Shown here piece by piece: positions 22,396-50,524 of a stretch of 64,000 nt of DNA; position 1 is the first letter of the stretch, and each line of letters opens with the position of its first letter. Source of the DNA: Escherichia coli (GTDB lineage Bacteria; Pseudomonadota; Gammaproteobacteria; Enterobacterales; Enterobacteriaceae); assembly GCA_025336725.1 (NCBI GenBank), contig GCA_025336725.1_3647.1. One strand, given 5' to 3'. Both the position numbers and the translations under genes were made by a program. The notes under the pieces are model-generated. The model was not told the DNA's origin. It searched no databases and saw only the letters and a program-made list of their open reading frames with translations.

Positions 22396-23043
22396 CTACT
22401 TGTTAAAGAGAGAAAGTCGCGTAGGCTCCAGACGATACTGCTGGTCACCAGGGAACATAACACCTATAGAGGCTGTCCCTAGAATCCTACCTTCCTTTCC
22501 AGACTCCATTCTGAACCCTACCCATCCTGAACTCCTTGCAGCCTCGATGTTGTCGCTATACCCGAAAGTGGCAAGATCGTCAACACCAGCCCCAAACAGC
22601 AACTGAAGCTGACTTCTCGGAAGCCCTATAATTTCAGGAATATATGCACCAAAGTACACCATCTGCCCTACCTTAGGACCACTGCCGTACTCCATCGGCT
22701 TGCTTGTAGGAAAAGTCTTCATACCAGAAGTCCCTGCCGGATTAGGGTATGCCCCGTTTGTTGCTGTGCCTATCCACATTCTCCACTGAGGTGCCATCTG
22801 TCTGACAGTGAAAGATGTTGAAGACGTTTTGCGGCCTGCATCATCCGTAACTACAAACTTTATAGTGACATTACCAGGGGCTTTAAATGTTACCAATCCT
22901 GTGGTAGCATCCACTGTTGCAATGCTAGTATTACTACTTTCCCAAGTCTTTCTAATCCCTGGCACATTGGAAGGGGTAATAGAAGGTTCCTGCATCTGCA
23001 GTTTACCGCCCACAATCCCTATGCCGTTACCTGGATTATACAA
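22396..23043 (-). CDS. Ig-like (Big_2-type) domain protein; possibly C-terminal extension of upstream large protein
   Basis: ..WESSNTSIATVDATTGLVTFKAPGNVTIKFVV.. Big_2-like; ORF-track start is TTG, frame open from 14 nt below the upstream stop. Confidence 0.4.
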   Translation of the reverse strand: MYNPGNGIGIVGGKLQMQEPSITPSNVPGIRKTWESSNTSIATVDATTGLVTFKAPGNVTIKFVVTDDAGRKTSSTSFTVRQMAPQWRMWIGTATNGAYPNPAGTSGMKTFPTSKPMEYGSGPKVGQMVYFGAYIPEIIGLPRSQLQLLFGAGVDDLATFGYSDNIEAARSSGWVGFRMESGKEGRILGTASIGVMFPGDQQYRLEPTRLSLFNK

Positions 23044-23057
23044 CGCACCAACTTCAT

Positions 23058-26000
23058 CTACAATGTTACCTGCCTTGAGGTCAGCTTTAGAGAAGCTGGG
23101 GTGCCGTTATATGTGTGTGTCCCTGAGAAGGTTACATCTGCCTTGCCGTTGGAGATGCAAACCAAAGCATACTTCCTGTCAGGTAACTGTGCCCCAGTTT
23201 CTGGGTGAGTTTTACCCACCTGGAACACGCTCGGGTCAGTAGAGTCGTGGCTATCACTAACAGAGCTTGGACCCCCCATCAACTGTGACAAGCAATTCCT
23301 TACCCATGTCCAGTTATTGTCACTAGAGAAGTCTACAGTCAAATCAAACACAACCCACTCATTTGGCTTCCACACAGGTGTTGTGATCAACTTACCAACA
23401 CCCCCACCCTGAAGGGTAGGAGATTGTTCAGTGATCAAGGCAGAGTATGCCAGAGTTCCCAACTGCATAGTCTGGCTTGCTGTCCTCACTACCTTAGAAT
23501 CAGCATCTGTGAAGTTGTTGATGATCTGGAATGTGCCATAAGTGTTTTTACAGGTAATTCTGGCATTCAGTGTATCAATCTTTCTCACATCTGCCATGGC
23601 AGTGTTAGACACAGAGAAGTCAGAAGCTTTAGCTGAGTTTGCTGCAACAGCCGGATCAACGTTGAGGGTTGCGTTGAACTGGCAGGCAGGAGTAACCAGT
23701 AGCTTGTTATCACCTATTTGCTTCCATGAAACACTTTGAACAGGGAGATTCCATTTAATACCTGAGAAAACTTTAGCAACCCTTGGTCCCAAAGCTCCAG
23801 TTCTATTGTCTTTACAGCACATAGACATAGTGATCGTTGACGGAGTTGCTTGACCAAACAATTGCTGTGCTTTTGCAGAGGACATAGTGTAGAAATTGTC
23901 CTTAACAAACTCATCAGCCGCTAACGATCCGTCAGACCTCCACCATTGTACCTGGTACCCTGTCTTATCCCAGCCACCAACCTGCTTCAAGTCCTCCCAA
24001 GAGATTTCTAGATCCCCAGTGGTAGGATTGATTGCAGCAGTTCCTGGTGTACCGGATGACCACAATGGGATATCGAACCACGCAGGTTTAACAGATTGCA
24101 CTGCGTTAGGACCTATTGCAGCAGCAAGTTGCCGGCCCATCAATACGCGAGCATCTTTCACCAGACCCCACTCGATCATAGATCCAGAGTAACCTTCTTT
24201 CTTGTAGGCTGAGGATCCGTTCAGATGGATGAGTCTGCTGCAGTCGAAGCCATACGCCCCGCCACCGTTAGGGTCTGCAAAGTTAGTTATGATTCTATCC
24301 CTAATATTTTTCCATGCCCTACCTCCAATCTCGTAGCCATGATCATAGCATCTTTGCAACGTTGTCCAGCAAATGATTGCCATTCTTCTGCCGCCCGTGA
24401 ACCCGAAAGCGCCGTCATTCAGCTCTTTCCACAGGTAACAGTTGGTTGTCCACATAGCCCTGTGGATATTGAACCAGTTTATAGATTTAGCGGAGTTGTT
24501 CCACCGAGTTCCGGGTAATTCAGGCCACACTGCATTTACTAGCATGTCCTCTGTACCAGCATCTATCAGGAAGCCTCTTACCTTCTTGCCCATACCTGCC
24601 CTGTCTTTAGCAATCCAATTGCCAAACAGTCTCAGTTTTGGACCGTAGACAACATCTTCTGGATGCTCAAAAGAAACATACTTTAGATATACTGTAGGGT
24701 CACCATAGGTGCCATCACAAACAGCTTTGTGCATGTTCTCGCCAAGATCTAAACGAAGTCCTGTTACAACTTTAGACGTGTCGGTGAATTTGTCTGTTAA
24801 ATCAAATTCATACCACCACCATCCACCGCCAAGCATGAATTTCTTGCATCGCACAGTGTCTGTATCGGATATTCTCTTATCCCCAGCAAAAGGTGAATCA
24901 GCAAACTGATAGTGCAGAGCAGTCTCGAACAGATGTGTTGATGTGCCGTTTTCTGCAAGAACTTGCTTGCCTATTAAGTCACACTTAATGATCATCACAA
25001 CACGCTTGTACCCGTTTGTTACCGGAACTTGCATAGATATAGATGTTCCGTCCATGTTCGATCTTAGTACGGTCATGATGATATAGGGGTCAACAGCGTT
25101 GCCTAAAGTTTCAGGCCCTGGGATTATCTTGTACTTCTTGACCTGCCCCATAAATCTATCACTGGCGTAAGTTGCAGCCTCTAAGCAAGAGCCTCCACCA
25201 GGTAACTCACCAGGTCCCCAGAAAAATGCGCCATAACAGTTATAAAACCACTTGTTAGGGTCGTATTTGTTCTTGAAGGTCTGAACCTCGTTGGCCTGTT
25301 TTGTCAAGAAAACCTGCGTATCTGTGAAGATTGCAGGGTTTACTCTTGACTGTCGATTAGCATACCCGGTTTGGTTAAACCATTGATTGCAAGAGTAGTC
25401 CCTCATATAGTCATAATCAGAGTATTTGTTGTTTGCATCCTCGTTCCAACACATATTGAGGTTGGTGCCGCCCATGCACACAATATATTCTTCAACGTAT
25501 TTATCACTTCTGGTAGGAACACCTATGAACCATCTGTTAACAGGCTCATCCCAAGCGGTGCGCTCATCTTTAACGCAGATCGCAATCCAGTTATGTGTCC
25601 CTGTTTTCTTGCACACATCTCGCTTCATACCGTAGTAGAATTCTTTAGTATTTGGCTCAGGTGCGCTTATTAGGTAGCTCCACGCCTGGTCCGCATAGGT
25701 TCCATTGGTACGAGGGTCATGATCAAAAGCATACATGATGATCCTTTCCCCACCAAGATGTTCGCCAAGAGTAACTTTGATATTCACATCGCCGTAACCG
25801 TTGCGAACAACATCCATATTGTCAATAGAGATGCCTCTAGGGGTGTAGGCAATTTTCAGTGAGTTATCCTCACTAGTGCCACCAAGGGTGATCCCTATGT
25901 TGTTTGTTGTCCCGTCGGCATATCTTACTGTGGCTTCCCAGCGTATTCCGAAATATCCTACATCATGGCTGACAATTTTCAGTGTACGAGCACCAGAGTT

Positions 26001-26369
26001 AGGTTTTCCAGGATCAGGCCAAGGGTTTGGGTGTTCGTGAACAGTTAACGATGTCCCGTTTTGTTCATTGACCTGCAACATTTTACCACCTCTGCCGTTT
26101 GGGTTGAACTCCCATAAGGCCTGTGTCTGCACCAAGTTATCATAGGTATTTCGTCGCTGATTATAAATCTCTTGGGTAACATCATAAGTTACTGATCCAG
26201 CATCCATTCTATGGAGTCTGACCATATACGATGTATCCCCTTCTACTGCAGGCTGAGCCGCATTCAGTCCAAAGTATATAGTATCATTAACATGGAACTG
26301 TTTGTTTCTACCGACAGTATGCCATTTACCATCAGACTGGTAAGCCGGGACAATGGTGTTCCAGTTCAA
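23058..26369 (-). CDS. large tail fiber / tailspike-like protein with putative carbohydrate-active domain
   Basis: 1103 aa; ORF-track start is TTG without good RBS; frame open upstream into 3' end of ORF 26423..28033. Confidence 0.45.
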   Translation of the reverse strand: MNWNTIVPAYQSDGKWHTVGRNKQFHVNDTIYFGLNAAQPAVEGDTSYMVRLHRMDAGSVTYDVTQEIYNQRRNTYDNLVQTQALWEFNPNGRGGKMLQVNEQNGTSLTVHEHPNPWPDPGKPNSGARTLKIVSHDVGYFGIRWEATVRYADGTTNNIGITLGGTSEDNSLKIAYTPRGISIDNMDVVRNGYGDVNIKVTLGEHLGGERIIMYAFDHDPRTNGTYADQAWSYLISAPEPNTKEFYYGMKRDVCKKTGTHNWIAICVKDERTAWDEPVNRWFIGVPTRSDKYVEEYIVCMGGTNLNMCWNEDANNKYSDYDYMRDYSCNQWFNQTGYANRQSRVNPAIFTDTQVFLTKQANEVQTFKNKYDPNKWFYNCYGAFFWGPGELPGGGSCLEAATYASDRFMGQVKKYKIIPGPETLGNAVDPYIIMTVLRSNMDGTSISMQVPVTNGYKRVVMIIKCDLIGKQVLAENGTSTHLFETALHYQFADSPFAGDKRISDTDTVRCKKFMLGGGWWWYEFDLTDKFTDTSKVVTGLRLDLGENMHKAVCDGTYGDPTVYLKYVSFEHPEDVVYGPKLRLFGNWIAKDRAGMGKKVRGFLIDAGTEDMLVNAVWPELPGTRWNNSAKSINWFNIHRAMWTTNCYLWKELNDGAFGFTGGRRMAIICWTTLQRCYDHGYEIGGRAWKNIRDRIITNFADPNGGGAYGFDCSRLIHLNGSSAYKKEGYSGSMIEWGLVKDARVLMGRQLAAAIGPNAVQSVKPAWFDIPLWSSGTPGTAAINPTTGDLEISWEDLKQVGGWDKTGYQVQWWRSDGSLAADEFVKDNFYTMSSAKAQQLFGQATPSTITMSMCCKDNRTGALGPRVAKVFSGIKWNLPVQSVSWKQIGDNKLLVTPACQFNATLNVDPAVAANSAKASDFSVSNTAMADVRKIDTLNARITCKNTYGTFQIINNFTDADSKVVRTASQTMQLGTLAYSALITEQSPTLQGGGVGKLITTPVWKPNEWVVFDLTVDFSSDNNWTWVRNCLSQLMGGPSSVSDSHDSTDPSVFQVGKTHPETGAQLPDRKYALVCISNGKADVTFSGTHTYNGTPASLKLTSRQVTL

Positions 26370-26422
26370 AGTCCTTGTTGTATGAGTCCTGCCTGTGCCA
26401 TGTTTGTCATGATAGGTTATTT

Positions 26423-28033
26423 TTACGGATACAGCCCACGTCTGTTAACATTCCTGTTATACTGGGTGACAATAACTTCGTTGGCCCCTCCGTGGTTCCA
26501 GTTGGTAGAGAATTGGTAATTTGCATCTGTAACAACCGTGCCTGCAGCATTTACCAGTTCAATCTTGTCAATAATGAACGTAGCCCCCTCTGGCTGAGGC
26601 TTCAATTTCATCTTGACTGTGTCGCCAATGTAGATATTGCTAACGCTGCTAACACCGTTAACGTCGAAAATATCATCAACTCCCCAACTGTCTACTGGGA
26701 CATTTTTATACCAATTCTCAGGAACCTCTGTGAACCCTTGACTATTAAGTCTGCCGCCAAACAGGTTATTAGAACCTGCAAAACTTCCCCTTGGAATGCC
26801 TGACCACCAAAGTTTACCATTAACAACAGTAAAAGTCCCTAAGAAACCTTCTCTGTGAATGCCTTGGAAATAAACACTTTCTGTCCAGCTAACTGGGAGG
26901 CGTTGCTCAACGTATTTGGCTGTGGCAAGAGCTTGATAGTGGATAAAATTGGCCCTGGGGCTATTGTTTGCAGACTGTGCACCAATATCATTACATAAGT
27001 TGCGAGAGAATCCGCGATACTGCTTAGTACCATTATTGAAGAAAATGCCACTTGTTCCGTACCCACGAGCCATTATTACTTCATGGGTGTAGGTAATATT
27101 TAAGGAACGCCATGTATCATCTCCCCAGACATCTTGCCCGTAGAATACGTTAACAAGCTGCTGATCATTAGGCTTGTGCATCCTCTGCGTTGCAATTATC
27201 GCCCCGTTAGGACCACACATGAATCCTTTCCACTCCTCATCTGCAGGAATGCCTTTCAAATCGTTGCGAGTAATCTGAGCAGGGGGCCAAACAAGGTCGT
27301 TTCTACTGTTGTTTCTCAGAAAGTCGTATCCAGCAATCCAAAAACCTCTAGGCCCACCGAAAATAACAGAGTTGTCATGCACCTCGCAGTTGATACTTGG
27401 GTTTTTCCAAGGGCCTGTTTCAGGATTTTCTGATGTTTCACCAATCTTTACAGGAGTTGCATGCTGGTTCTTATCTACATGTAAAGATCCGTAGGTGTTG
27501 TTACCAGACCCATACAGGTTCAGTATGCCAGTACCTTCTGCCTCTGCAATAACCCAGACAGTGTTGTTAATACCTCCCATTACCTCAATAAGGCGCTCTG
27601 GGTGGGTGTCAAGGTGCAATCCTTTAACAATCTGTTCCGGAAGAGGTGTCCACTCGTTGACGCAAACATCGTTACCACCTGCCGCAGTGGATCCGATAAG
27701 ACCTGCAGTGCAGCCGATGTAGAAAAACTGGTTATCAAAAGTCCGGATCACAAACGCACGGTCTGCTCTCCACACATGATCAACATTCCAGGCTGTCTCG
27801 CTCGGGTAGTTTATAGGGCTACGATCCCCAGTGCGACACTCCCCGAACTTGTTATAGCCAGTAATATTAAGCTGACCATCGTCAAAAAGTATAGCTAAGC
27901 TATTTACATAAGCTACTGTAGTGCTTGTACCGTCACTGTTGTCTATTGGATATGACAGAACAGCAAGTTCCTTAACTCCACTCCTCTTATCGAGGAAATG
28001 ACGACCAAGTTTTAGCAAAGGGATTGGAAGCAT
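26423..28033 (-). CDS. tail fiber/tailspike-like protein, possibly N-terminal part of the 23058..26369 protein
   Basis: 536 aa; ATG with GGAGA RBS; Gly/Asn-rich beta-rich repeats. Confidence 0.45.
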   Translation of the reverse strand: MLPIPLLKLGRHFLDKRSGVKELAVLSYPIDNSDGTSTTVAYVNSLAILFDDGQLNITGYNKFGECRTGDRSPINYPSETAWNVDHVWRADRAFVIRTFDNQFFYIGCTAGLIGSTAAGGNDVCVNEWTPLPEQIVKGLHLDTHPERLIEVMGGINNTVWVIAEAEGTGILNLYGSGNNTYGSLHVDKNQHATPVKIGETSENPETGPWKNPSINCEVHDNSVIFGGPRGFWIAGYDFLRNNSRNDLVWPPAQITRNDLKGIPADEEWKGFMCGPNGAIIATQRMHKPNDQQLVNVFYGQDVWGDDTWRSLNITYTHEVIMARGYGTSGIFFNNGTKQYRGFSRNLCNDIGAQSANNSPRANFIHYQALATAKYVEQRLPVSWTESVYFQGIHREGFLGTFTVVNGKLWWSGIPRGSFAGSNNLFGGRLNSQGFTEVPENWYKNVPVDSWGVDDIFDVNGVSSVSNIYIGDTVKMKLKPQPEGATFIIDKIELVNAAGTVVTDANYQFSTNWNHGGANEVIVTQYNRNVNRRGLYP

Positions 28034-28047
28034 TGTGTTCTCCAGAT

Positions 28048-28072: not shown

Positions 28073-28081
28073 TCAGATATA

Positions 28082-29827
28082 TTAACGTTGTGCAATAACC
28101 ACATCCACAATATCACCAACACCACAATATGTCAATTGTAGCAAGGTGACACTGTTGGCTTTGTTGTTAATAACAGGAGTAGCCGACAGTATGGCATATT
28201 TATCGTGTAAAGTCACGTTGTGGCCTACAGCATCCTGAATGACATAGATGATTGCAGTGAACGGGTAAGGTTTATCTTCAGCCGATGTTCCAGGCCATTG
28301 CCCTATTGTAAAATCCCCTTTCGCGTGGACAACATACATATTGGCCTGCCCGTTAGGTGTCCATGTCCCACTAGATGCGTCAGCCTCCTCTAAGTCAAAC
28401 TCCACCTTCCCTGCATGGAAAGCAGGGGCAGTAATAGTTTTACCAGCTTCAATTTCTTGAGAGGTGGTTATCTTGCCACTGGAGTTAATGCCATTACAGA
28501 CAAAGTTGACATTAGAGAAGTCTGGCAGCCACCCAGTCACTGTACCTGATATTTCAAGGTTGTGAAGGTAGGTGGTGCCCGTCCCTGCTGCGTTTAAACT
28601 AACATCTCCATTTACCTGCAAGTTTCTGGTAACGTTGCAGTTTTCAGAGTTTGCAGTTGTTGCAGTTAGAGTGGTGGTTGTCAGCTCGGTAATTACACCT
28701 TTGTTGGCTGTAAGCCCCTCTCCTTCAAAAGTGGCACGCTCATTCACCCTCAGAGTATTTAAAGATATGTTCTGGACAGATGCTGTGCCACGAATGACTA
28801 TAGATCCACCAACCTCTAAATCTCCATTGATCAGTGCATCTCCCGTGCTTTCAATATAGCTAGGGTAGATCATGGTGCCATCTACAGAGTAGGTTATCCC
28901 TGTAACGGTGCCTGTCACCTCAAGGTTCTTAACCCTAGTGGTCCCATCAACCTGCAATGTCGGTTCGGTGGCTGCCTTCATGGCATTACCACGAATGTAC
29001 ACGTAGTCAAAAAAGTTATTACCTAGACCATCAAAATGCACATCGTTGTTATTAGCCACTGGTTTCCCAGAAGTTATAGTGTCAGCTATAACTCTGTGAG
29101 TTGATACTTCATGAGGTTGCAGCTCTGTGCTTCTCCAGTCTGCATGCTTAGGATCGCTCCACGCAAAAGTTAGTGTAGAAGTATTTGCCGTAAGGATTAG
29201 GTTCCTGAAGCGTGCAGTAGAATCTGCTCCATTAACAGGCCCGTGTAAGGTAAGGGTGCCCCCAACTATGGTGTTAGCAAGTTCTGTAAGACCTTTTACC
29301 ACCAAAGATCCTACAGTAACTTTCATCCCCTCCATGGCTTTAAATATGCTATCCACATAGTCAACAACAAACTCTGTGTTTGCTATAGACTCTGACTTAT
29401 CATCCATCGGAGGTGTAGGTACTCTCGGGTCACCTTCGAACCTTGGGCTGTTAAGTTTTGCGTAGTATTTTGCCATTACTGCAGAATCGGTGTATAATCT
29501 CCAGTTCGGAGATTGTGAAGGATCTGCTGGCATCCTAACCGGGTTAGATTTTGATGCTGCTGGGGCGTACCACCACTGAGTGCCTGTATCCCCTTTAAAC
29601 TCATACAACTGGTTAAAAACTGTTGTGGATGCACCATACGCCCAAGGGATTGGTGGCGTTTTAAAATAAAGGGTGTCAAGCATGGCTTTTCGTACCGTAG
29701 GGATGGTGGTCCCATCCTCTACGACAACTTCATCCACAGCGTTACCGTTGACAATCAAGTGCAAACGTTCAGAATCAACAATTACTTGATCTACCGCCTG
29801 CTCGAAGCTTGTCATGTCTTGCGCCAT
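28082..29827 (-). CDS. tailspike/tail fiber protein (beta-helix-like repeats)
   Basis: 581 aa; AGGAGA RBS; repetitive ..NLEVTGTVTG.., ..NLEISGTVTG.. segments. Confidence 0.5.
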   Translation of the reverse strand: MAQDMTSFEQAVDQVIVDSERLHLIVNGNAVDEVVVEDGTTIPTVRKAMLDTLYFKTPPIPWAYGASTTVFNQLYEFKGDTGTQWWYAPAASKSNPVRMPADPSQSPNWRLYTDSAVMAKYYAKLNSPRFEGDPRVPTPPMDDKSESIANTEFVVDYVDSIFKAMEGMKVTVGSLVVKGLTELANTIVGGTLTLHGPVNGADSTARFRNLILTANTSTLTFAWSDPKHADWRSTELQPHEVSTHRVIADTITSGKPVANNNDVHFDGLGNNFFDYVYIRGNAMKAATEPTLQVDGTTRVKNLEVTGTVTGITYSVDGTMIYPSYIESTGDALINGDLEVGGSIVIRGTASVQNISLNTLRVNERATFEGEGLTANKGVITELTTTTLTATTANSENCNVTRNLQVNGDVSLNAAGTGTTYLHNLEISGTVTGWLPDFSNVNFVCNGINSSGKITTSQEIEAGKTITAPAFHAGKVEFDLEEADASSGTWTPNGQANMYVVHAKGDFTIGQWPGTSAEDKPYPFTAIIYVIQDAVGHNVTLHDKYAILSATPVINNKANSVTLLQLTYCGVGDIVDVVIAQR

Positions 29828-30112: not shown

Positions 30113-30850
30113 TTAAGCATAAGATATCGTGATCCATTGACCGTTTACAAATTTTTGAATAGCACCAGTCCAATAGTCACCTTGATACGGGTGTTTATAG
30201 GCGTAATTGCCGGAGCACATTACATGCCCAGGGTATACTCTTGATTCTCTGTAGGTGGTTCTGAAACGGTTTGCTATCCTTACATCTTCAACACCCCTAC
30301 TAGGCATAGGGATAGTAAGGTTACCACTGCTATCTGCGCTACTACCATTTACCCTGCGGACCACGTTTCTCCCACCAACTGTTGCATATTGACCTCTGGC
30401 GGTTTTATCGTTACAATCTACTCTTCCCCCTATTTGAGCGCTGCCGCAGGATTGTTGTCCATTAACAGTGGCTCTAGGTATCGTTACCGCATTAGCATTT
30501 GCAGAGGAGCTTTTTGCATCATTGCATTCAAGATTCCCTTGGATAGCCAGTCTTGCACGGTTGGCAGTTATAGCATTGAGCTTCATAGCCGAAAACACAG
30601 GTTGCCCACCAGAAGGTTGAAATCTCCAACGGAAACCGTCTATTTGGTGAGAGGGATCATCAAGGTCTGTGCCGTCAGCACCACCTATGTTGTCCATAAT
30701 CCAGAAATCCATCATCGTCTTGTCTGGAGTTATGGTGGTGTATATCGCCGCATTGTCTGTTGACGCGGATGCGAACTCGATTCTTTGAAGACCTAAAGTT
30801 TGAGTCTGGATCATTGTGTCTCCAGCCTTGTCAACATAAAGGTCATCCAT
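30113..30850 (-). CDS. tail fiber 1, C-terminal part (P2 gpH / Mu S-like); frame-split from N-domain ORF
   Basis: C-terminus ..AIQKFVNGQWITISYA resembles P2 gpH end (..IQKYINGTWYNVAQV); paralogue of 32171..32956. Confidence 0.6.
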   Translation of the reverse strand: MDDLYVDKAGDTMIQTQTLGLQRIEFASASTDNAAIYTTITPDKTMMDFWIMDNIGGADGTDLDDPSHQIDGFRWRFQPSGGQPVFSAMKLNAITANRARLAIQGNLECNDAKSSSANANAVTIPRATVNGQQSCGSAQIGGRVDCNDKTARGQYATVGGRNVVRRVNGSSADSSGNLTIPMPSRGVEDVRIANRFRTTYRESRVYPGHVMCSGNYAYKHPYQGDYWTGAIQKFVNGQWITISYA

Positions 30851-31161
30851 TTCTTCAGGCGAGTATACATTGAGAACTTGACGTGCGGCAGCTTTGTCTG
30901 GAACGTCTGCTGATTATTAGTGACCCTTAAGAATCTATTATCCCATCCTGGGACAACATCTTCTGTTAAATGCTTCAACATTTGGTGAGAGAGCATGTGA
31001 AGTTCAAAGTTATCAACCTCACATGCCACTCTTTGTGTCATATCCCAACCTTTCAATCTCTCTTCTTTTTTTGGCTGAGACTTATTCAACTCTCCCGTAT
31101 TTTCAAGCACAACATCCTGATTGGCCCAAATATCAAGAGGGATAACTGGTTTAGTCATCAC
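30811..31161 (-). CDS. tail fiber 1, N-terminal domain ORF (different frame)
   Basis: AGGAG RBS + ATG; MMTKPVIPLDIWANQDVVL..KGWD.. homologous to N-domain ORF 33019..33213; last ~45 codons look out of frame. Confidence 0.5.
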   Translation of the reverse strand: MMTKPVIPLDIWANQDVVLENTGELNKSQPKKEERLKGWDMTQRVACEVDNFELHMLSHQMLKHLTEDVVPGWDNRFLRVTNNQQTFQTKLPHVKFSMYTRLKKWMTFMLTRLETQ

Positions 31162-31209
31162 GTTCTCCTGAGAAAATTCCTTAGACTATTTTAACACTTT
31201 AGAGAACAA

Positions 31210-31240
31210 ATGCAAGAACGGAGTCCTTTCCGTTCTGACC
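31210..31240 (-). terminator. terminator-like hairpin
   Basis: Minus strand GAACGG-AAAGGACT-CCGTTC followed by T-rich tract, upstream of fiber-1 RBS. Confidence 0.3.
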
Positions 31241-31368
31241 TTTGTTTACCTTTTACTATGCTCTACGAGCATGTGCAAAATCTTTTGTATAGTCGGCTCG
31301 ATGTTTCGAGACATCTGTCCTGACATCCTGCTTAAGGTCGTTAATATCGGCCTCTAGCTTGCTTAACT

Positions 31369-31560
31369 CTAAGTCTCGATAACGGAATCGTTATCTTTTT
31401 GTAACCATGCTATTTTCGACACTAAAATGAGGTCTTTCTCCAGCTCATCTAGCCTCTTGGAAATTCCTTTCATTTGCACACTGGTTGAAAGCCCATACAC
31501 AGATCGGGACAACAGTAGCTTCCATGCAGATACCGTATAAAGCCGCCAAATCCAACCCAC
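31369..31560 (-). CDS. small hypothetical protein; coiled-coil continuation in -1 frame to 31256
   Basis: GTG start 5 nt after strong GAGGAGG RBS; -1 frame continues ..LSKLEADINDLKQDVRTDVSKHRADYTKDF.. with no start codon. Confidence 0.4.
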   Translation of the reverse strand: MGWIWRLYTVSAWKLLLSRSVYGLSTSVQMKGISKRLDELEKDLILVSKIAWLQKDNDSVIET

Positions 31561-32956: not shown

Positions 32957-33018
32957 AAATCGCTCAGGTTATTATCACGTATTGTGATAACGGCCCTCTG
33001 TAAGGTGGGATCTGCTCG

Positions 33019-41744: not shown

Positions 41745-42181
41745 TAATACCTCCAGACATCAACAACGATAGAATCTTTCATGTCGAACATAAAGACCCC
41801 TTTATCACCTTTCGCCCAAATCTGGTTGTTCCAGAACACACCAGCGGTGAGCCCGTTCAGACCTTCGAAAATAACAATATCTCCACGCTGAACCTGCTTA
41901 GGAGTGTCCAGTCGAGTCATAAAGAAATCAAAAATAGTAGGCAGGTGTGTAGTTTTGAAACGAAGCATGCACCATCTTTTGCTTTCCAACTCTGTTTTAT
42001 ACGTCCCTTCGAAGTTAGAAAGAAAATCTGTTCCGTATTGGGCATCAACACACTTAGCTGCAAAGGTGCAACAATCGTGGAATCCCCATTCAAAAGGTAT
42101 GGTGGCCTCCTCGTCAAACACTTTCCACAATCTTTCTTGCCAATCCACTAAACGAGGGTGTGTGCTCATTAAACCTCCCAA
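41744..42181 (-). CDS. tail tip assembly protein, NlpC/P60-like (lambda gpK-like)
   Basis: 145 aa; candidate catalytic Cys in ..HDCCTFAAKC..; immediately upstream of J-like gene. Confidence 0.5.
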   Translation of the reverse strand: MGGLMSTHPRLVDWQERLWKVFDEEATIPFEWGFHDCCTFAAKCVDAQYGTDFLSNFEGTYKTELESKRWCMLRFKTTHLPTIFDFFMTRLDTPKQVQRGDIVIFEGLNGLTAGVFWNNQIWAKGDKGVFMFDMKDSIVVDVWRY

Positions 42182-42735
42182 ATGATCGGGCGGCTCGCCA
42201 CCTGATCCACATATTTAAAAAATCTGTCGTTATCGTTTCTTGAGCTGTGGCTTTCCTCCGTGTACCGATAAGGAAAACCTCTTAACCAGCTGTTGAAGAT
42301 GGAAGAGATGGATATGGACAAAGCGCTATTCTCTCCTGTCTGAATAGCCATATCTGTTATAAGGCCGTCAAACAAGCCATTAGTTGTGACAGGCAGACCA
42401 TTCTCCATAGCGGTAATGTACAACGTGGCACGACAACCAGAATACTCCGTCTTCAGCAGATCACCCACATACTTAGGATCAAACCCGTTTAATGTTGCTA
42501 CCACAGATCCGAAGTTGGTGGCATCTTTCTCAGACACAGCAGTTAATGTTGCTGATCCACCTATCCCTATAAAATGTTGCCCCTCAATTACTACAACACC
42601 AGTGCCTGAGCACACCCTAACAGTTCCTGTCGGTAGCTCCAGCTTTGCAGCAATTAAGATCTCAACACCATCAAGCTCCAGCTTTTCAAGAAATAAATTA
42701 TCTAATGGCGCTCTGATCATCTTAGAAATCCTCAA
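42169..42735 (-). CDS. minor tail protein (lambda gpL-like, tentative)
   Basis: 188 aa; position between M-like and K-like genes. Confidence 0.35.
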   Translation of the reverse strand: MRISKMIRAPLDNLFLEKLELDGVEILIAAKLELPTGTVRVCSGTGVVVIEGQHFIGIGGSATLTAVSEKDATNFGSVVATLNGFDPKYVGDLLKTEYSGCRATLYITAMENGLPVTTNGLFDGLITDMAIQTGENSALSISISSIFNSWLRGFPYRYTEESHSSRNDNDRFFKYVDQVASRPIIWEV

Positions 42736-43312
42736 AGAAGTTGATAACTATATTATCACCTTTTTGCATAGCATCGACTTTTTGCTTAATTTTATAAATA
42801 TCTCTGATATGAAACCTACCCTTCGGGGATTGAGTTATTATCTTCATAGTGTCCCCTGCGGCAATAGGTTTTCTAAGTCTTGGAGATATGCTTATAACAG
42901 CAGACCCAACACCATCGCTACGCACTGGAGCTGTTACCACTTTCAATTCATCATTGACAGATATTTTATCCCCAGCTCTGGCTATGTCTCTGTTTGGCTC
43001 CCACCCAACCGTCCTCAAAAAATCATCGTTACCAGTAGGCCCAAGGGCGATTGGCTCATTAGCTGTTACTGAGTGACCGTAAGTTTTAATAAGAAAGATG
43101 TTTCCATCTTTATACACCTGATCAACAAAGCTCTTAAGCTCTAGCAACTGTGACTCGCTGATATTGGAAACCGTCAAAGTGCCTTTCCAGTTAGGTGTGG
43201 CATAGGTTACTTTTTGCGTTTTACCTGTAAACGGACTTTTAAACGTAACAATATCTGCCAGTAGCTCCAATCTAATATCTGGAAGGTATCTAGGCCTTTC
43301 CCATAAAAACAT
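42722..43312 (-). CDS. minor tail protein (lambda gpM-like N-terminal region, tentative)
   Basis: 196 aa; ..GTLTVSNISESQLLELKSFVDQ.. resembles lambda gpM ..YSVTLSVPREEATVLESFLEEHG.. Confidence 0.35.
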   Translation of the reverse strand: MFLWERPRYLPDIRLELLADIVTFKSPFTGKTQKVTYATPNWKGTLTVSNISESQLLELKSFVDQVYKDGNIFLIKTYGHSVTANEPIALGPTGNDDFLRTVGWEPNRDIARAGDKISVNDELKVVTAPVRSDGVGSAVISISPRLRKPIAAGDTMKIITQSPKGRFHIRDIYKIKQKVDAMQKGDNIVINFFEDF

Positions 43313-43403: not shown

Positions 43404-43411
43404 CAAAACAG

Positions 43412-46400
43412 TTACTTCAGTTTCTCTTGCAACCCAGTAACAACCTCTGTCAATTTTTTAACCTGCTCCTCAAGGGCGGTTATTTTATCATCCTGTTCCC
43501 TGCAAACCTGGACAAGCAAGCCTGTAACAGCTGCGTAGTCAACGTTATAGAACCTTTCCTCGGTCATCAGAGGAATACCGTCTTGAGTAGGACCTTCTAT
43601 TTCCTTCCTTTTCACGAAAGACCCTACTGCCTCTGGCAATGCTTCCATAACCTCTTGAGCAATCACGCCTGCATAAGGCATACCATTCTCTTTCAAGGTG
43701 TAGGTATAGCCTTTCATCTTTCTAATTGCTTCCAGAGCGTTAGGTATGACCTCTATATTATCCTTCAGGTCACGGTCAGAACTTTGACTAACAGTGGTGC
43801 ACTCTACCGTGCCGTTGACAGCAAAATATCTTGATTTAGCCTCATCTGCCTTAGCTCCACAGTGGAATACCCAGCTGGCGGCTGTTGAGTTATCACTTAT
43901 CTGAAGCTCCAGCACACTCTTCCTATCCGCGCCATTACCCCAATAGAATAATCTAGCATTATCAGCAGGTAGGTTACCGTTGTTGCTGGGATCTTCAGAA
44001 CCACCAACATGAATGCATAGCTCTTTATCTGTTTCATCAACATTTCGATTCGGGCGTAACTGGATAGCTTTACCAGAATCATGCCGCCAAACTTCCCACA
44101 TATAAGTGGAGCCAGTTCTATCCATGTTACCAACACGCGTGTATCTGTCACCAAAACGTGTGATGTACTCCTGTACGCATCCTTTCGGATTGTTTGCATT
44201 GTTCTGGTAAACAATCAGAGTACCAGCGTACGGTGCTGGGTAATGTCTTTCAGATGTCGAGTTGGCATCAAGATGTTGGTGATAGATGCCCTCACAAGTA
44301 CCATCGTAAGTGTTTAGGTCTGTAGATTCAAGACCTGCACCTCTGTGTGAGAAGATCTTGTTCCACGGTCTGTGAGCACCACCCTCAATAGATCTGGTAT
44401 ACAACCTATCAAGGCGACCAGCTATCTGGAAAGCATAATTCCCAGAAAATGCCACAGACAGACCGCCAACAACCATCGAACCTTCCGGCCCGTTGACATT
44501 GCCAGCCATTATCTTGGAGGGGTTTGTATTACCAAACTGATTGTTCCAGTCAGCACCTGTCTGGCAAACATAGCCTCCCGGAGGGAAAAATGTGCCGTCT
44601 TTGTTGAAATTGTAGAACTTATGAGCTGTACCTACAACATCGCGAACGATAACTTGACCAGCTTCCGGAGTAGATCTGAACTCTGCCTGGCCTTGCAGTC
44701 TTGCACCATTACCACATTTAGAGGTAAAGGTGTTGTTGATCAGATCCTCTGTTCCTTCCGATGCAGCCTGGAACCCTGCATTAGAGAACAGTGCTTTTCG
44801 AGTAGTCTGACTACCTGGGCAGATGTAGTTAAGACCGTTGCACCATAACTCTGTCAGGCCAAACTCTGTTTTATTGGACAGGAAATATCTGTCAGAAGAC
44901 CCACGATACATCCACTGATTGGTGTAGAAACCTGTTACACCATTAAATTCAGCCAGAGGTCGAGTGTTTGTTACATTGTCACCTTTGATTGCTAGATTCA
45001 AGTCAGCAGATGCTAGAGGTGCACAGAATTTAACACCGTCTTGGTTGTTTGTTACATTGCCAACCTGCCAGTCTTCCTCTCTTGTTGACACCTCTATTAC
45101 GTCAGCGCTGGCATACACTGTTACAGGGAAGGCACGTGCCTCCACATAGAACGCAACATACTCTTGTTTACCCCTTGTTGGAGCAACGCACCCAAGTATC
45201 GCCTTCTCATTCTGGTAGAAATTTATCGACCCGGTAAAGAAGTCACCACGATCAGTCCAGCCACCAGTTCTGTAGTGGCACTGCAGTGTAGCACAGTTCA
45301 TAGGATCGTTGCCAGAAGAAGATCTGGTAACGATGGTTAAATCTGTCCCGATTGTTGGCGCATGGTTAGGATCGGTTCTGACAATAATCGGATAATACTT
45401 GCCATCCTGCATCGCTGCAGTTCTAGGCAGGTTTATATATGGTCTGACACCTGCTGCAAGAGGGATTCTGAATTGTGCCTGGGCATCTCCCACAGTCCTA
45501 GCACTGGTGCCACCGCAACCTATCGGCAAAGGTTCCCATTTAGCCTTGCGGTTGTTATAAACACCCCATTCCAGAGTACCATTACCGGATTCATCCATCC
45601 CTCCATCCCAGATTACCATTTTTGCGGCTTTCTTGGATCCCCAGAACCCTCTTTCTGCTCCTGAACTACGGATCCATTCTCCAAGACCCCAGTTTGTCAG
45701 CTGACCAGTAAGATCCCCAACCTGCATGTATTTAGGGCAGTCTAACACGCCATCTTCGCGGAAACCTAAATATCTATGAGTTTCAGATCCTTTTGCGCCT
45801 TTGTGCAGGTGGAGTGTCAACCAAGCCTTATTGTCGTTTCTTACCTCAGAGTAGATCCTATACCCATGCTCAAGGACACCGTCAGCGCTGTATTTGTCCC
45901 CGTTAACAATACCTGATGCTGACTTAACATCTCCAGAGTATTGAGCTAAGTAAAGGTGCCCGAAGGCTGGTGAGTTGTTTTTACCAAGGCCGATATGAGA
46001 TCTGAAGGTATCATCGTTACGAGGTCTGACCATCGGCTGCCATGCAGTCCACTGATTTGTGTTGGCCTGATAGGTTCTCAAATACCAAACATCTACGTTA
46101 GAGAATGGATAGTATTCCTGACGACAACCTGTACCGCCGTTAGCGTTGTTCTGCCAAACAATCAAGTGACCAGCACCAGAACCTGCAGGGTAACCATTTG
46201 CCTCAGTTGCATAAGCAGTCATCGGCTGGTAGTATATACCATCCTGATTACCAGTCAAGTTATTGATATTGAAATTTGGCTCAAGGGCTGCACGTTGCTT
46301 ATAGAAAGCACCGATATTGGTACGGATTCCAGCGGCATCTCTAGCCCCTGTGCCGCCCTGCTCTATAGCAAGAGGCTGCCAAGAAGCTGTTTGTTGGTTC

Positions 46401-47221
46401 CACATACCCCAACGGCCTGTTGCATCAAGCTGCAAGTACCCTGCCGTGTTTAAATCATCTCCAGCACGGATAACTGTTCTTGTTGGGTTGTTTGCCTCCA
46501 GGCGTTTAAATTCGTCACGAAGTGCTATTCTTTTTGTTGTTGCTACACCGTTGGTTACTGCAATGGTATACATGGCTCCAGAGGTAGCGCCACGGAAAAT
46601 GCCATCAACAGTTGTAGTATCACGACGAGATACCACACCGTTCAGAAATTTTTCACCAGCCGCTTCAGAAGGGTAATTAGTAGTTCTTCCCTCTTCAATA
46701 ACTGCAGGACCAACAAAGTTGACAAGGTGAATAACATCGCCTACAGTATGCACTGTGCCAAAATCTACCCGCTGTGCAAGTGCTTTAGCATCGTTGGCTG
46801 TCTGAACAGTAACATCCATTACATCCTGGACAGACTGCCCTTCGGCTGTCATGATCATAGATGCGCCAATGGTAGACTCCAGCTCCTCCCTTAAGGACGG
46901 ATCTGTATATACCATCCACGCAGCGTCAGTAATCCCACCGTCAGAATATGGTGAAGACAGTGCAGGGACAGTGTGTGGAAATTCGCCTTTCCAACGCAGG
47001 TATAGATCTTCCTCTTCGAAGTAGGCAAAATCCATTGGGCCGTTTAACTTACCACCTTCCTTAAAGGAGATTACATGAGAAACAGTCCCATCCACATGGA
47101 CAACATCGCCAATTTTTACACGACGGGTCAGGTCTGGTTGTTGAACAACCAGGTAATCATCCTCTGTCACTGCGGTAGTGGCAGGAAGAGATTCAATTCT
47201 GACAACTTTAATATCAGCCAT
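43412..47221 (-). CDS. long tail fiber with C-terminal intramolecular chaperone (peptidase S74-like) domain
   Basis: 1269 aa; C-terminus ..SDRDLKDNIEVIPNALEAIRKMKGYTYTLKENGMPYAGVIAQEV..; N-terminal domain shared with ORF 49856..50524. Confidence 0.7.
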   Translation of the reverse strand: MADIKVVRIESLPATTAVTEDDYLVVQQPDLTRRVKIGDVVHVDGTVSHVISFKEGGKLNGPMDFAYFEEEDLYLRWKGEFPHTVPALSSPYSDGGITDAAWMVYTDPSLREELESTIGASMIMTAEGQSVQDVMDVTVQTANDAKALAQRVDFGTVHTVGDVIHLVNFVGPAVIEEGRTTNYPSEAAGEKFLNGVVSRRDTTTVDGIFRGATSGAMYTIAVTNGVATTKRIALRDEFKRLEANNPTRTVIRAGDDLNTAGYLQLDATGRWGMWNQQTASWQPLAIEQGGTGARDAAGIRTNIGAFYKQRAALEPNFNINNLTGNQDGIYYQPMTAYATEANGYPAGSGAGHLIVWQNNANGGTGCRQEYYPFSNVDVWYLRTYQANTNQWTAWQPMVRPRNDDTFRSHIGLGKNNSPAFGHLYLAQYSGDVKSASGIVNGDKYSADGVLEHGYRIYSEVRNDNKAWLTLHLHKGAKGSETHRYLGFREDGVLDCPKYMQVGDLTGQLTNWGLGEWIRSSGAERGFWGSKKAAKMVIWDGGMDESGNGTLEWGVYNNRKAKWEPLPIGCGGTSARTVGDAQAQFRIPLAAGVRPYINLPRTAAMQDGKYYPIIVRTDPNHAPTIGTDLTIVTRSSSGNDPMNCATLQCHYRTGGWTDRGDFFTGSINFYQNEKAILGCVAPTRGKQEYVAFYVEARAFPVTVYASADVIEVSTREEDWQVGNVTNNQDGVKFCAPLASADLNLAIKGDNVTNTRPLAEFNGVTGFYTNQWMYRGSSDRYFLSNKTEFGLTELWCNGLNYICPGSQTTRKALFSNAGFQAASEGTEDLINNTFTSKCGNGARLQGQAEFRSTPEAGQVIVRDVVGTAHKFYNFNKDGTFFPPGGYVCQTGADWNNQFGNTNPSKIMAGNVNGPEGSMVVGGLSVAFSGNYAFQIAGRLDRLYTRSIEGGAHRPWNKIFSHRGAGLESTDLNTYDGTCEGIYHQHLDANSTSERHYPAPYAGTLIVYQNNANNPKGCVQEYITRFGDRYTRVGNMDRTGSTYMWEVWRHDSGKAIQLRPNRNVDETDKELCIHVGGSEDPSNNGNLPADNARLFYWGNGADRKSVLELQISDNSTAASWVFHCGAKADEAKSRYFAVNGTVECTTVSQSSDRDLKDNIEVIPNALEAIRKMKGYTYTLKENGMPYAGVIAQEVMEALPEAVGSFVKRKEIEGPTQDGIPLMTEERFYNVDYAAVTGLLVQVCREQDDKITALEEQVKKLTEVVTGLQEKLK

Positions 47222-47256
47222 TCTTTCTCCTGAAAGGGGGCAAACAGCCCCCTATG

Positions 47257-49854
47257 TTAAAGGTACAATCCACGGTATTGAGCATAAAGTCCCAGACCGC
47301 GAAGGATTTCGCCAGAGTGATAGCCTACCGGATCAGAAACTGCCCAGCAGCCGTTTAAAACATTATCCCCGTTAATGAAGTGGTGCTTTTGCAGTAACTT
47401 CACACAGGCTTCTACAACAATATCTATTTGGGGTATTGTCTCTGAATACCCGCACAGACCTAGCCAGCAGCAACCTGCAAGCCATTCACCAACCACCCAC
47501 ATCCTGTCTCCTCTGTCTTGATAAGAATATCCCCCAGAGGTGTTAAAGTCTGTAGGCAGATTTCCTGAATGAGATGACTGGAATCTGTTGAGGAACCATG
47601 CCCATTTCTGGCAGAACAGGAATAGTCTTTCATCAACAGGTTCTTTATGTTTCTTGAGCTCATATATTGTTCGGCACGCAGCAACAAAAGATCTTGACTG
47701 GAGTTTAGAGTTATCTACCATCTCCCACCAACCAGTCAATCCTTCATTACCTCTCTGCCATACATAACGTGAGGCAACTGGACCCTCTGTCTTAAATGTA
47801 TTATTATACCAGACTTGAGCGTCATACAGAAAGCCTATTGTATTTGACAATCTATGGCGATCTATGTTTTCTGCACCCATGCAGTAGACTGCTGGGTATT
47901 GCATACCAGGGTATGGCCAATTTGGCTTTTCCTCTAAGAGATAGTTTTCCTTATCTATCACCTTTCCGGCAGGGAACACACCCGGTGTGTGCCTGTATGC
48001 ACCTTGCTTGTAGTTTCTGACATAGCAATCACCAACCTTAGCGGTTGATTCTGTCTTGCTTGCCATCCACACGCTAAACCATATTAGATAAGCATCCCTA
48101 TCTGCAATATAGAACTGCGGCAGCGTGTTTACGCAGTACAGATCAAACAAGCCATTACCTATCTGCCTGTCGCTTAGACTGAAATCTACAGAGGTGAGCC
48201 CTTTAGGATTAGCAAAGAAAGGTTTAATCTCTTCTTCGGTGTGATGAGGTTGTGTCGGATCTAGTTTGAAATCTCCTAGAGTAAGAGTTTCTGTTATCCA
48301 TTGTCCATTAGTGGCATATAGATCAGCATACCATAACCACCTATCTTTGTCAAGAAATTTGACCCTTACCATCTCATCATCTGACCGATAAGTTACTGAA
48401 TTTAAAGAAATCTCTCTCCCAAAATTGAAAGTTACTTTACCTCTTGCTATATTACAACGGGTGAAGTTGTCAGAGTGGTTGTAAATGTCGGTATCATACT
48501 GCATACTAACACTAGCGCCACCGCTTACGACAATGTTTTCCTCTTTAGGTAAGAGATACGGATTACCGTCTTTACCAACTACCTCTACGAAATCAGTGAC
48601 CTTGGCAACTGTCTCTGTTACCTCTGACCCTCCAAAAGGGACCCCTATCCTATACTGTTTTTTGTTATTGTTGCCATCATTAAGGATGAAATGTGGCTGG
48701 AACAGAACTCCTTCTCCTCCGAAATTCATAACAATTTCAGCATCTCTGCCGATCTTGTATGTGGTCCCTTTTTGGATTATTTCACAAGGCTGGCGTGCGT
48801 TCATTCTAAAATTGATATACCCGTCGCTGTCCCTACTCATGACAGGAACTGTTCCTGCAACGAGACAGGCTCCATCTGTGAACGGTGCCTTAATCAACGT
48901 GGTCTTTCTAAACAACTTGTCGTAGGCATTTATATCACTGAAATTAAGCAACTTGTTGTAAGACTGTTTAAACGCGGTGTAATACTTTTCCTCACCTGTC
49001 AAGGTGTAGAGTTGATAACAAGCGTCGCACCACATTTCTTCCCCGTCCAACTCTGGGGCTTGATTATCTGCAACCACATTTATAGGATTTACAATTACAG
49101 GGGATCCAGCAGGTATCACCGATCCACCCTGCTCTTGTGGCAATCTCACACAGTAGGTTACCTTGTGGCTGCCTGTAACACCCTTATCCTGCAGTTGGAT
49201 TGTGCCGAACTCTGCAGACGTATGACCACTATCGGCTATGCTACCGTTGGCCCAATAGCGGTTACCGTCCCATGCTATATACCACTCAACCCACCAACTT
49301 AATCCAGATGTTGTCCAATTTGGGTTAGCATCTGTGCCGCCGTAAACATCAGAGTCTACAGTGTTTCTTCCTAACACACCGTTATACGCTTGGAATGCCT
49401 TGTCCAGGTATTCCCCCCATGTTGGAGATCCAGCTGGGATTTTTCCTCTACCGTTGGTAAAAGACACCACCACATCTTTAAACCCACCGTGTGATGGGAC
49501 CCCATCTGTGGATAGAGGGTAGTGGGACAATCTTTGCATTTTACTTTCTACGGCATATGCACCCAGAAGATGACTATTGTACGCTTCCCAAGCATCTTTT
49601 GCCCTATCCAGATAGAAATAGCTTTTCGATGCCCTGTATGCTTCAATGTATCCCAGAATCAACACAGCTTGGGACTCATGCATTGCCCAATCATTATTTA
49701 TCTTACTCCCTGACCAACCTGACGCTATAAGTCCATCTTGGTTTACCAGCTTGTTCTGCGTAGGAAGATTGGTAATACCTGTGTTGTTATCGAGGCACTT
49801 CCTGTGCCCCTCAATCATCTGGAATACGTTATCAATGTTGTGTTGAATACGCAT
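47257..49854 (-). CDS. tailspike-like protein, possible polysaccharide-degrading domain
   Basis: 865 aa; weak resemblance to (alpha/alpha)6-barrel glycoside hydrolases; call is tentative. Confidence 0.35.
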   Translation of the reverse strand: MRIQHNIDNVFQMIEGHRKCLDNNTGITNLPTQNKLVNQDGLIASGWSGSKINNDWAMHESQAVLILGYIEAYRASKSYFYLDRAKDAWEAYNSHLLGAYAVESKMQRLSHYPLSTDGVPSHGGFKDVVVSFTNGRGKIPAGSPTWGEYLDKAFQAYNGVLGRNTVDSDVYGGTDANPNWTTSGLSWWVEWYIAWDGNRYWANGSIADSGHTSAEFGTIQLQDKGVTGSHKVTYCVRLPQEQGGSVIPAGSPVIVNPINVVADNQAPELDGEEMWCDACYQLYTLTGEEKYYTAFKQSYNKLLNFSDINAYDKLFRKTTLIKAPFTDGACLVAGTVPVMSRDSDGYINFRMNARQPCEIIQKGTTYKIGRDAEIVMNFGGEGVLFQPHFILNDGNNNKKQYRIGVPFGGSEVTETVAKVTDFVEVVGKDGNPYLLPKEENIVVSGGASVSMQYDTDIYNHSDNFTRCNIARGKVTFNFGREISLNSVTYRSDDEMVRVKFLDKDRWLWYADLYATNGQWITETLTLGDFKLDPTQPHHTEEEIKPFFANPKGLTSVDFSLSDRQIGNGLFDLYCVNTLPQFYIADRDAYLIWFSVWMASKTESTAKVGDCYVRNYKQGAYRHTPGVFPAGKVIDKENYLLEEKPNWPYPGMQYPAVYCMGAENIDRHRLSNTIGFLYDAQVWYNNTFKTEGPVASRYVWQRGNEGLTGWWEMVDNSKLQSRSFVAACRTIYELKKHKEPVDERLFLFCQKWAWFLNRFQSSHSGNLPTDFNTSGGYSYQDRGDRMWVVGEWLAGCCWLGLCGYSETIPQIDIVVEACVKLLQKHHFINGDNVLNGCWAVSDPVGYHSGEILRGLGLYAQYRGLYL

Positions 49855-49855
49855 C

Positions 49856-50524
49856 TTAGATAGCTCCTGCGATAATCAGTGCTCCGTACCAAGTTAACCC
49901 GTTGTCGTAGGTTTCCAACTTGAAAATGTCTGTTGCACCAGCTGTAAATGTCAGGATAGGATCTCTTCCGTATGCCCATTTAACATTATCAGGCCAATAG
50001 ACTTTGTTACCGCCAGAGGTCTGAGTAATGCATACGGTTATAGTTCTCGCCACACCTTCAAGACCTTCTGTTTGATTTTCAAAAGAGATTGTGGTGTTTG
50101 AAGTTAGTCGAACTTTAAAAGTGTCAGCAACTTCAAGATCCATATCAAGCTGACCACCAATAGATCCGTAATCAACTATTCTGCCAGAAGAAGTTGCAGC
50201 AAGCTCACCAAAAACAGACCAGGCTTTTGCAGACACACCCCCAGCACCCTCTACAGTGGAGTCTGGGAGGATTATTTTAGGATAATCCCCGTTCCACGTG
50301 TAGTAGCGCTTAGTTTCTGGGTCATAAGCAAAGTCCTTCTTGCTCTTAAGATAACCACCCTCTGTGAAATAGACTATCTTAGTAATGCTAAGATCGTTGA
50401 CAACATCGTCAATCTTAGCCTTTCTTGTCCCATCAGTCTGGTTGACAACCAAGAAGTCATCACTCAGGACTGTTTCTGCATCTTCAAGATCTGGAATTGG
50501 TATTGTAGGATAAGCTACAGCCAT
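49856..50524 (-). CDS. tail fiber anchor-domain protein
   Basis: 222 aa; N-terminus ..DDFLVVNQTDGTRKAKIDDVV..FTEGGYL..DFAY.. homologous to N-terminus of the 1269-aa fiber. Confidence 0.45.
   Translation of the reverse strand: MAVAYPTIPIPDLEDAETVLSDDFLVVNQTDGTRKAKIDDVVNDLSITKIVYFTEGGYLKSKKDFAYDPETKRYYTWNGDYPKIILPDSTVEGAGGVSAKAWSVFGELAATSSGRIVDYGSIGGQLDMDLEVADTFKVRLTSNTTISFENQTEGLEGVARTITVCITQTSGGNKVYWPDNVKWAYGRDPILTFTAGATDIFKLETYDNGLTWYGALIIAGAI

Follow-up and report, generated by a model that had tools for sequence, protein, structure and literature searches.

A 28-kb multi-fibre locus that very probably represents the canonical Vequintavirus host-recognition cluster

Does a phage that carries one fibre gene after another over some 28 kb possess an exceptional set of receptor-binding proteins, or is such a set the usual equipment of its lineage? 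The question is raised by positions 22396 to 50524 of a 64,000-nucleotide stretch of DNA (here called the window; contig GCA_025336725.1_3647.1 of the Escherichia coli assembly GCA_025336725.1). The original prediction, made from the sequence alone, counted at least eight candidate fibres or tailspikes in this locus and saw in them an unusually large arsenal, suggestive of a branched multi-receptor adsorption apparatus. Based on comparison with known phages, the locus is very probably the canonical Vequintavirus host-recognition cluster, orthologous gene for gene to gp43-gp27 of phage rV5. All open reading frames (ORFs) that had been listed are present on the minus strand at the positions given and have strong phage-tail homologs, so that chance is not the explanation. 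The description of the locus as fibre-rich was correct; once the gene models are corrected, nine fibre-type genes should be counted, accompanied by a chaperone and by baseplate parts, all on the minus strand. A multi-fibre locus of this kind is already known as a hallmark of the rV5-like phages and has been published for them repeatedly; the arsenal is large in comparison with phages in general but is the norm within the Vequintavirus lineage.

The window derives from a Vequintavirus (an rV5-like myophage) and is about 93 % identical in DNA sequence to dozens of deposited phages. When positions 22396-46000 were used as a megablast query against a phage nucleotide collection of 50,697 records, 131 phage records were matched, 96 of them with at least 80 % query coverage and almost all at 90-95 % identity. 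The matches belong to Vequintavirus phages of Escherichia, among them rV5, Murica, ECP32 and BASEL phages, and to a series named 'Campylobacter phage'. The 15-18 records with the latter label (MG0656xx series, unannotated) are about 92-93 % identical to this locus, and their host label seems doubtful. ECP32 aligned with the window in one collinear 47-kb high-scoring segment pair (HSP) of blastn with 93.9 % identity. For the giant fibre gene, no phage record exceeded about 94 % identity over its length, and the exact sequences of the 536-amino-acid (aa) fragment of this gene and of the 1269-aa fibre were absent from the public protein index. With a best identity of about 94 % and two proteins lacking an exact public match, the window phage therefore belongs to a group that has been sampled very well but has itself not been deposited.

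Genes were mapped by tblastn of every protein of phages EduardKellenberger (EK, Bas59) and ECP32 onto the window, with rV5 brought in through its annotation, and the left-hand genes of the window were checked against ECP32. Collinear orthologs of rV5 gp27-gp43 were found, bordered on one side by the baseplate core genes and on the other by the early genes, which are transcribed divergently (Table 1). The gene content was the same as in the relatives, no fibre gene being extra or missing in comparison with EK and ECP32, and most of the locus proteins were 93-100 % identical to those of the compared relatives. Three large genes, encoding the 1269-aa fibre, the J-like protein and the giant fibre, are allelically variable, and the same three vary in relatives. 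Compared to rV5 and BASEL relatives such as EK, the genes, their order and their orientation are thus shared, as are the three variable genes, while the window has a new distal allele of the gp41-like gene, a long J allele and frame breaks which the compared relatives lack.

At the upstream end of the locus, the 222-aa protein carries a Tail_spike_N docking domain (Pfam PF18668, residues 51-104, E value 3e-10), is matched over its full length by phrog_7760 and is 99 % identical to its ECP32 counterpart. Pfam and PDB sequence searches revealed no recognisable enzymatic or distal binding domain in it, and it is a candidate adaptor or anchor. In the 1269-aa fibre the same docking domain (residues 46-103) precedes a long shaft, and an intramolecular chaperone of the S74 type is located C-terminally (PF13884, residues 1148-1199, E value 8e-15). 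PF18668 scored above the gathering threshold in both proteins, and their N-termini are 38 % identical over about 100 residues. The common docking domain suggests that fibres dock on one another, i.e. that the apparatus may branch. In the PDB search the 1269-aa fibre matched N-terminal domains of tailspikes of the CBA120/G7C type. The locus resembles those of CBA120 (Kuttervirus) and G7C in having the TSP1/Gp66-type Tail_spike_N domain on two proteins, with matches in the PDB to CBA120 tailspikes 3 and 4 (N-terminal parts) and to other tailspike and fibre chains. It differs in that neither the Pfam searches nor the model of the 865-aa protein revealed a beta-helix depolymerase body: this protein is predicted to be an (alpha/alpha)6 barrel and the 1269-aa protein is a long S74-chaperoned fibre.

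The 1269-aa fibre as a whole is 88 % identical to those of ECP32 and EK. Its distal half (43412-45600) found no near-full-length match above about 82 % nucleotide identity in the 50,697 phage records and is a new allele of a gene already known to be hypervariable. This previously unseen distal allele of the gp41 type may shift host range.

The 865-aa protein had been described as spike-like, a description which its predicted model does not bear out. The model has an (alpha/alpha)6-barrel fold like that of glycoside hydrolases, interrupted by beta-sandwich domains. A right-handed beta-helix spike was considered for this protein and is ruled out by the predicted barrel; no pectate-lyase or beta-helix Pfam match was obtained for any of the candidates. 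Even with relaxed thresholds, Pfam searches yielded no usable match for the 865-aa protein, the 581-aa protein or the giant-fibre fragments, and PDB sequence searches gave no match for the 865-aa, short fibre and Dit-like proteins. In a Pfam search of the homologs of the 865-aa protein, one had a strong GH8 match but was 480 residues longer, so that the match possibly lies outside the shared part, and matches to GH76 were marginal.

The 690-aa protein is probably the receptor protein for the N4 glycan receptor (NGR), as judged by its relationship to phage N4. It was matched by the Pfam families TIM-barrel_NCTSP (PF23845, E value 4e-80) and PF23844 (E value 9e-14), and by N4 Gp64 in the PDB (9lc0_M, E value 2e-24), while residues 285-344 matched phrog_15324, 'tail sheath and receptor binding protein', which is of the N4 Gp65 type. 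According to a 2026 preprint, a Gp65-like segment of about 60 aa identifies the NGR-binding protein in Vequintavirus and phi92-like phages. NGR binding in these relatives was deduced from dependence on wecB and NGR, and the receptor was formerly thought to be the enterobacterial common antigen. Like the Gp64/Gp65 pair of N4, the 690-aa protein combines an NCTSP N-domain, a TIM barrel and the Gp65-like segment of about 60 aa; it differs in that the domains are joined in one protein, that this belongs to a contractile-tail baseplate and that an extra N-terminal beta-sandwich is present. This beta-sandwich gives a sub-threshold match to Calx-beta (25.6 bits compared to a gathering cut-off of 27), and the former designation as a Calx-beta protein gives way to the strong matches to the N4 NCTSP family.

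Two short tail fibre genes, whose products are about 44 % identical and both match phrog_4465, lie one on each side of the gene for the assembly chaperone Tfa (PF02413 Caudo_TAP, phrog_136, 98 % aa identity to ECP32). In the literature they are related to GpS/GpU of phage Mu and to the Mu fibre fold. The label 'P2 H-like' given to them earlier would be too specific, as the published relation points to Mu GpS/GpU and not particularly to P2 H. As in Mu S/U (P2 H/G), a Caudo_TAP chaperone adjoins the fibre genes, the difference being that here two paralogs flank one chaperone.

Residues 8-325 of the 581-aa protein match a fibre chain modelled in the baseplate of phage phiTE (PDB 9cuy_g/9mjn, E value 3e-78). 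This protein (phrog_4549; 100 % aa identity to ECP32) consists of an N-terminus, a shaft and a C-terminal head, and precomputed annotation places PF26208 and PF26209 on all of its homologs. The AlphaFold2 (AF2) monomer was poor, with a predicted local distance difference test score (pLDDT) of 57, and confident only at the head (residues 480-581). The layout fits class TC8 of the RBPseg study, in which the head may carry a further fibre. The giant fibre, encoded by the next gene downstream, would be an obvious candidate for this carried fibre. It has a Big_2 domain in its last part and gave only a marginal match to an intimin immunoglobulin-like (Ig) domain in the PDB search.

Between the long fibre gene and the wedge genes, the gp40-gp37 block (37592-43312) is, as judged by homology and gene order, a complete siphovirus-type tail-tip module composed of Dit, a tail protein, a DUF6950 protein and J. 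The Dit-like protein matches phrog_1302, 'distal tail protein', the 188-aa protein matches phrog_2048 and the 145-aa protein PF22262 (DUF6950). The nearest relatives found for the module belong to the Queuovirinae; homologs of the 188-aa protein with about 40 % identity occur in siphoviruses of this subfamily with genomes of 58-64 kb. In one of these, SHIN8, the gene order is tape measure, Dit, tail protein, a 144-aa protein and J, and the Dit-like, 188-aa, DUF6950 and J-like proteins are 33, 40, 45 and 50 % identical to their SHIN8 counterparts, in the same order. The identity of 50 % to SHIN8 J extends over residues 48-867, the hub-forming part included. The J-like protein also contains the Pfam domains Ig_J_second, Ig_J and Phage_Tail_Tip and has PDB matches to lambda J. 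The likeness to SHIN8 and to the lambda genes M/L/K/I/J hence comprises four consecutive homologs in the same order, the first three of similar sizes; in contrast, J is longer here (1381 compared to 1077 aa), and the module stands in a myovirus that encodes a hub, a spike and a tape measure of its own elsewhere. In siphoviruses such a module forms the end of a non-contractile tail and is encoded directly after the tape measure. Here it lies about 11 kb downstream of the tape measure gene, with baseplate-core and fibre genes in between, in a genome encoding a sheath, a P2-like spike, a hub and wedges.

Similarity to the siphovirus PY54 has already been recorded in the rV5 annotation, and the RBPseg study described a 'central-fibre-like' N-terminal region in a fibre of the Vequintavirinae, but no published map places the tip module in the virion. 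We tentatively propose, as a possibility that is far from assured, that the module was acquired horizontally and might be built as a self-contained organelle at the side of the contractile-tail baseplate, a siphovirus tip being reused as a lateral fibre. If this were true, the hypervariable J allele would be a host-range determinant built on borrowed architecture. The allele in the window is of the long ECP32 type (1381 aa), 97 % identical to that of ECP32 and 76 % identical to that of EK, and about 100 aa longer than the rV5/EK allele. The J-like gene also shows an internal duplication of the Ig-like/tip region at 38166-39380, residues 688-1090 of EK aligning twice.

Taken as a whole, the locus very probably specifies a multivalent apparatus for adsorption, carried by a baseplate of the P2/Mu type. 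By analogy with related phages, the 690-aa protein would bind the conserved NGR glycan in a primary, host-independent adsorption. The 1269-aa, J-like and giant fibres could then deal with capsules, O-antigens and other strain-specific layers, helped by the conserved 865-aa and 581-aa proteins, which the literature on relatives takes to be glycan-active. Finally, the two Mu S-like short fibres, folded by Tfa, would bind the outer core of the lipopolysaccharide (LPS), leading to contraction. For this scheme the present analysis supplies the orthology, the domains present and the fold of the 865-aa protein, which is like that of glycosidases; published work on relatives supplies the receptors, co-expression, branching and conditional essentiality. 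The BASEL study described three co-expressed lateral fibre sets as a Swiss army knife of nano size, and nine tail fibre proteins were annotated in the Vequintavirinae Bas49 and Bas54 (RBPseg). Cryo-electron microscopy (cryo-EM) of phi92 revealed three fibre types, each present as six trimers, and the base of fibre I as the attachment site of fibre II. In Bas54, transposon mapping showed several fibre genes to be dispensable on E. coli K-12 and different ones to be essential on different clinical E. coli strains. Virions of rV5 contain gp30, 32, 33, 37, 41, 42 and 43. The branched multi-receptor apparatus first suggested for the window corresponds to this published view of the lineage (BASEL, phi92 cryo-EM, Bas54). 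Phage phi92 (Justusliebigvirus; Schwarzer 2012, Chen 2026), compared here by description, resembles the window phage in its P2/Mu-like baseplate core, several co-expressed fibre types, a branching fibre, a Mu-like short fibre (fibre III, gp147) and an NGR-binding protein (gp142). It differs in having an endosialidase (gp143), a colanic-acid-degrading protein (gp150) and one short fibre in place of the two paralogs.

Several points weigh against reading the locus in so much functional detail. All receptor assignments are transferred from relatives. The barrel of the 865-aa protein may serve binding instead of hydrolysis, and with a pLDDT of 57 the AF2 model of the 581-aa protein is too poor for a fold search bearing on its 'glycosidase domain' annotation. 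A more general objection would be that the listed proteins mostly belong to the baseplate as structural parts, and are neither receptor-binding nor enzymatic. Such parts are certainly present. The gp36- and gp35-like wedge proteins, 99 % identical in aa sequence to those of relatives, are structural and not receptor-binding, and the Dit-like, gp39-like, DUF6950, Tfa and small 88-aa and approximately 104-aa proteins in the range are non-receptor parts as well. The objection could also call on the 222-aa protein with its lack of a recognisable enzymatic or distal binding domain, and on the N-terminal 870 residues of the J-like protein, which in siphoviruses are the hub-forming part. It is nevertheless very improbable, as the nine named candidates bear fibre, docking, receptor or glycosidase-like features, the 1269-aa, J-like and giant genes are allelically variable within the lineage, and homologs are conditionally essential depending on the host. 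Domain annotation, proposed at the outset as a check, led to the same result: most of the candidates are not structural baseplate parts, and the real ones are other ORFs which had not been counted.

The gene models had to be corrected because of about a dozen or more frame-breaking small indels in comparison with intact orthologs, which affect four of the nine fibre genes. What had been taken for a complex of three proteins of 536, 1103 and 215 aa is one gene of about 1875 aa in fragments: the three ORFs correspond to positions 1-535, 556-1646 and 1666-1871 of a single PHROG, phrog_15684, and the gene is a single coding sequence (CDS) of 1875-1877 aa in EK, ECP32 and rV5 (gp27). In tblastn its pieces lie in frames -1, -3 and -2 and are 96-98 % identical in aa sequence to ECP32, the C-terminus being 75 % identical to EK; the breaks are at about 26429 and 23097. 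The two short proteins were rightly regarded as fibres with a Tfa, but at 261 and 245 aa they are the larger fragments of genes of 346 and 347 aa. The 261-aa ORF of short fibre 1 is a C-terminal fragment (phrog_4465 positions 87-342) of a gene broken near 33046, with indels at 32959-33046, and short fibre 2 consists of ORFs of 116 and 245 aa (phrog_4465 positions 1-87 and 103-342), separated by a break at about 30911 with a single-base deletion at about 30912. Both short fibres gave tblastn HSPs in frames -2/-1. Likewise, the J-like protein is J-like as proposed, but its 1199-aa ORF lacks the last approximately 195 residues: it stops early at 38145 after a frame change at about 38166-38194, and the remainder continues in other frames to 37595.

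These frame breaks are in all likelihood sequencing or assembly errors, and not pseudogenes, phase variation or programmed frameshifts. Genes other than those for fibres are also broken, namely the homologs of gp31 and gp44 (at about 51106), the tube initiator (about 53800), a small early gene (about 20055) and the tape measure, which shows about four frame changes and is split into five or more ORF pieces. No phage could be viable if its tape measure, its tube and sheath initiators and its two short fibres were all broken, and errors are inferred for this reason. The indels inspected are of single or double bases outside homopolymer runs and grouped in short patches. In the C-terminal region of J (37780-38279), which is about 95 % identical in DNA to many relatives, the alignment with EK had 503 columns with 8 gap openings and 13 mismatches.

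It might be supposed that the breaks are genuine, and that the phage is defective or laboratory-adapted with a functional arsenal smaller than the ORF count. Several fibre genes of Bas54 tolerate disruption on E. coli K-12, although their mapping to the giant and J-like genes is inferred from gene order, and the giant gene is annotated as two CDSs in some deposited relatives. We consider this quite improbable, as a particle in which the tape measure, the tube and sheath initiators and both short fibres, the proposed binders of the terminal receptor, are broken could not assemble or infect, and as the indels are grouped in patches of otherwise near-identical sequence. Vequintaviruses are lytic, so that prophage decay is not expected either. 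That the breaks are programmed frameshifts or phase-variable switches which diversify receptor-binding proteins is scarcely credible: the sole point in favour is that several lie in fibre genes, whereas non-fibre genes are equally hit, the inspected sites showed neither homopolymer runs or repeat tracts nor an obvious slippery sequence, and the orthologs are intact in all three references (EK, ECP32 and rV5) and have a single product name in most other records. Errors being the preferred explanation, the window's sequence appears to be of poor quality, and gene calls made from its ORFs should not be relied on without resequencing.

Table 1 Features of the fibre locus and its surroundings (positions in the window)
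Feature	Position	Strand	Homolog or remark
222-aa protein, candidate adaptor/anchor	49856-50524	-	rV5 gp43 homolog
865-aa lateral fibre component	47257-49854	-	rV5 gp42 homolog
1269-aa long fibre	43412-47221	-	rV5 gp41 homolog
Dit-like (196 aa), 188-aa and DUF6950 (145 aa) proteins	41744-43312	-	rV5 gp40, gp39 and gp38 homologs
J-like protein	37592-41744; 1199-aa ORF 38145-41744	-	rV5 gp37 homolog (1381 aa in ECP32)
Baseplate_J-like wedge protein (496-aa homolog)	35996-37516	-	rV5 gp36 homolog; PF04865; phrog_6
228-aa baseplate wedge protein	35298-35984	-	rV5 gp35 homolog; phrog_4056
690-aa fibre, N4 Gp64/Gp65-related	33226-35298	-	rV5 gp34 homolog
Short tail fibre paralog 1 (346 aa)	32171-33213; 261-aa ORF 32171-32956	-	rV5 gp33 homolog
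Tail fibre assembly chaperone Tfa (194 aa)	31572-32156	-	rV5 gp32 homolog
Small protein	between Tfa and short fibre 2	-	rV5 gp31 homolog, frame-broken
Short tail fibre paralog 2 (347 aa)	30113-31158; 245-aa ORF 30113-30850	-	rV5 gp30 homolog
88-aa protein	between short fibre 2 and 581-aa gene		rV5 gp29 homolog; PHROGs label: membrane protein
581-aa fibre	28082-29827	-	rV5 gp28 homolog
Giant Ig-like fibre (about 1875 aa)	22396-28033	-	rV5 gp27 homolog
Giant-gene ORFs of 536, 1103 and 215 aa	26423-28033, 23058-26369, 22396-23043	-	three different frames
Baseplate core: sheath-initiator-like gp44 homolog, spike, hub, plug, tube initiator, tape measure	50534-56662	-	tblastn mapping; outside the fibre locus
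Frame-break sites	20055, 23097, 26429, 30911, 31185-31560, 32959-33046, 37841-38240, 51085-51110, 53792-53814, 54466-55470

The baseplate core upstream of the fibre locus, to which the C-terminus of the tape measure belongs, is together with the two wedge proteins of the P2/Mu/phi92 type on the basis of its homologs, and the roles are named after those in the baseplate of phi92. For the spike the match is to the N-terminal domain family of the phi92-type central spike protein, and for the plug to Pam3_gp18. Further on, the tail tube gene and the gp51-like gene are separated by about 1.8 kb of extra DNA (57460-59250). An HNH/homing endonuclease (phrog_559), split into ORFs of 99 and 412 aa, is encoded in this segment, which was found at 80 % coverage or more in only 4 of 118 related phage records (HMD-6, JEP1, A147 and A135). 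Based on this rarity among relatives, the HNH-bearing segment is a mobile insertion.

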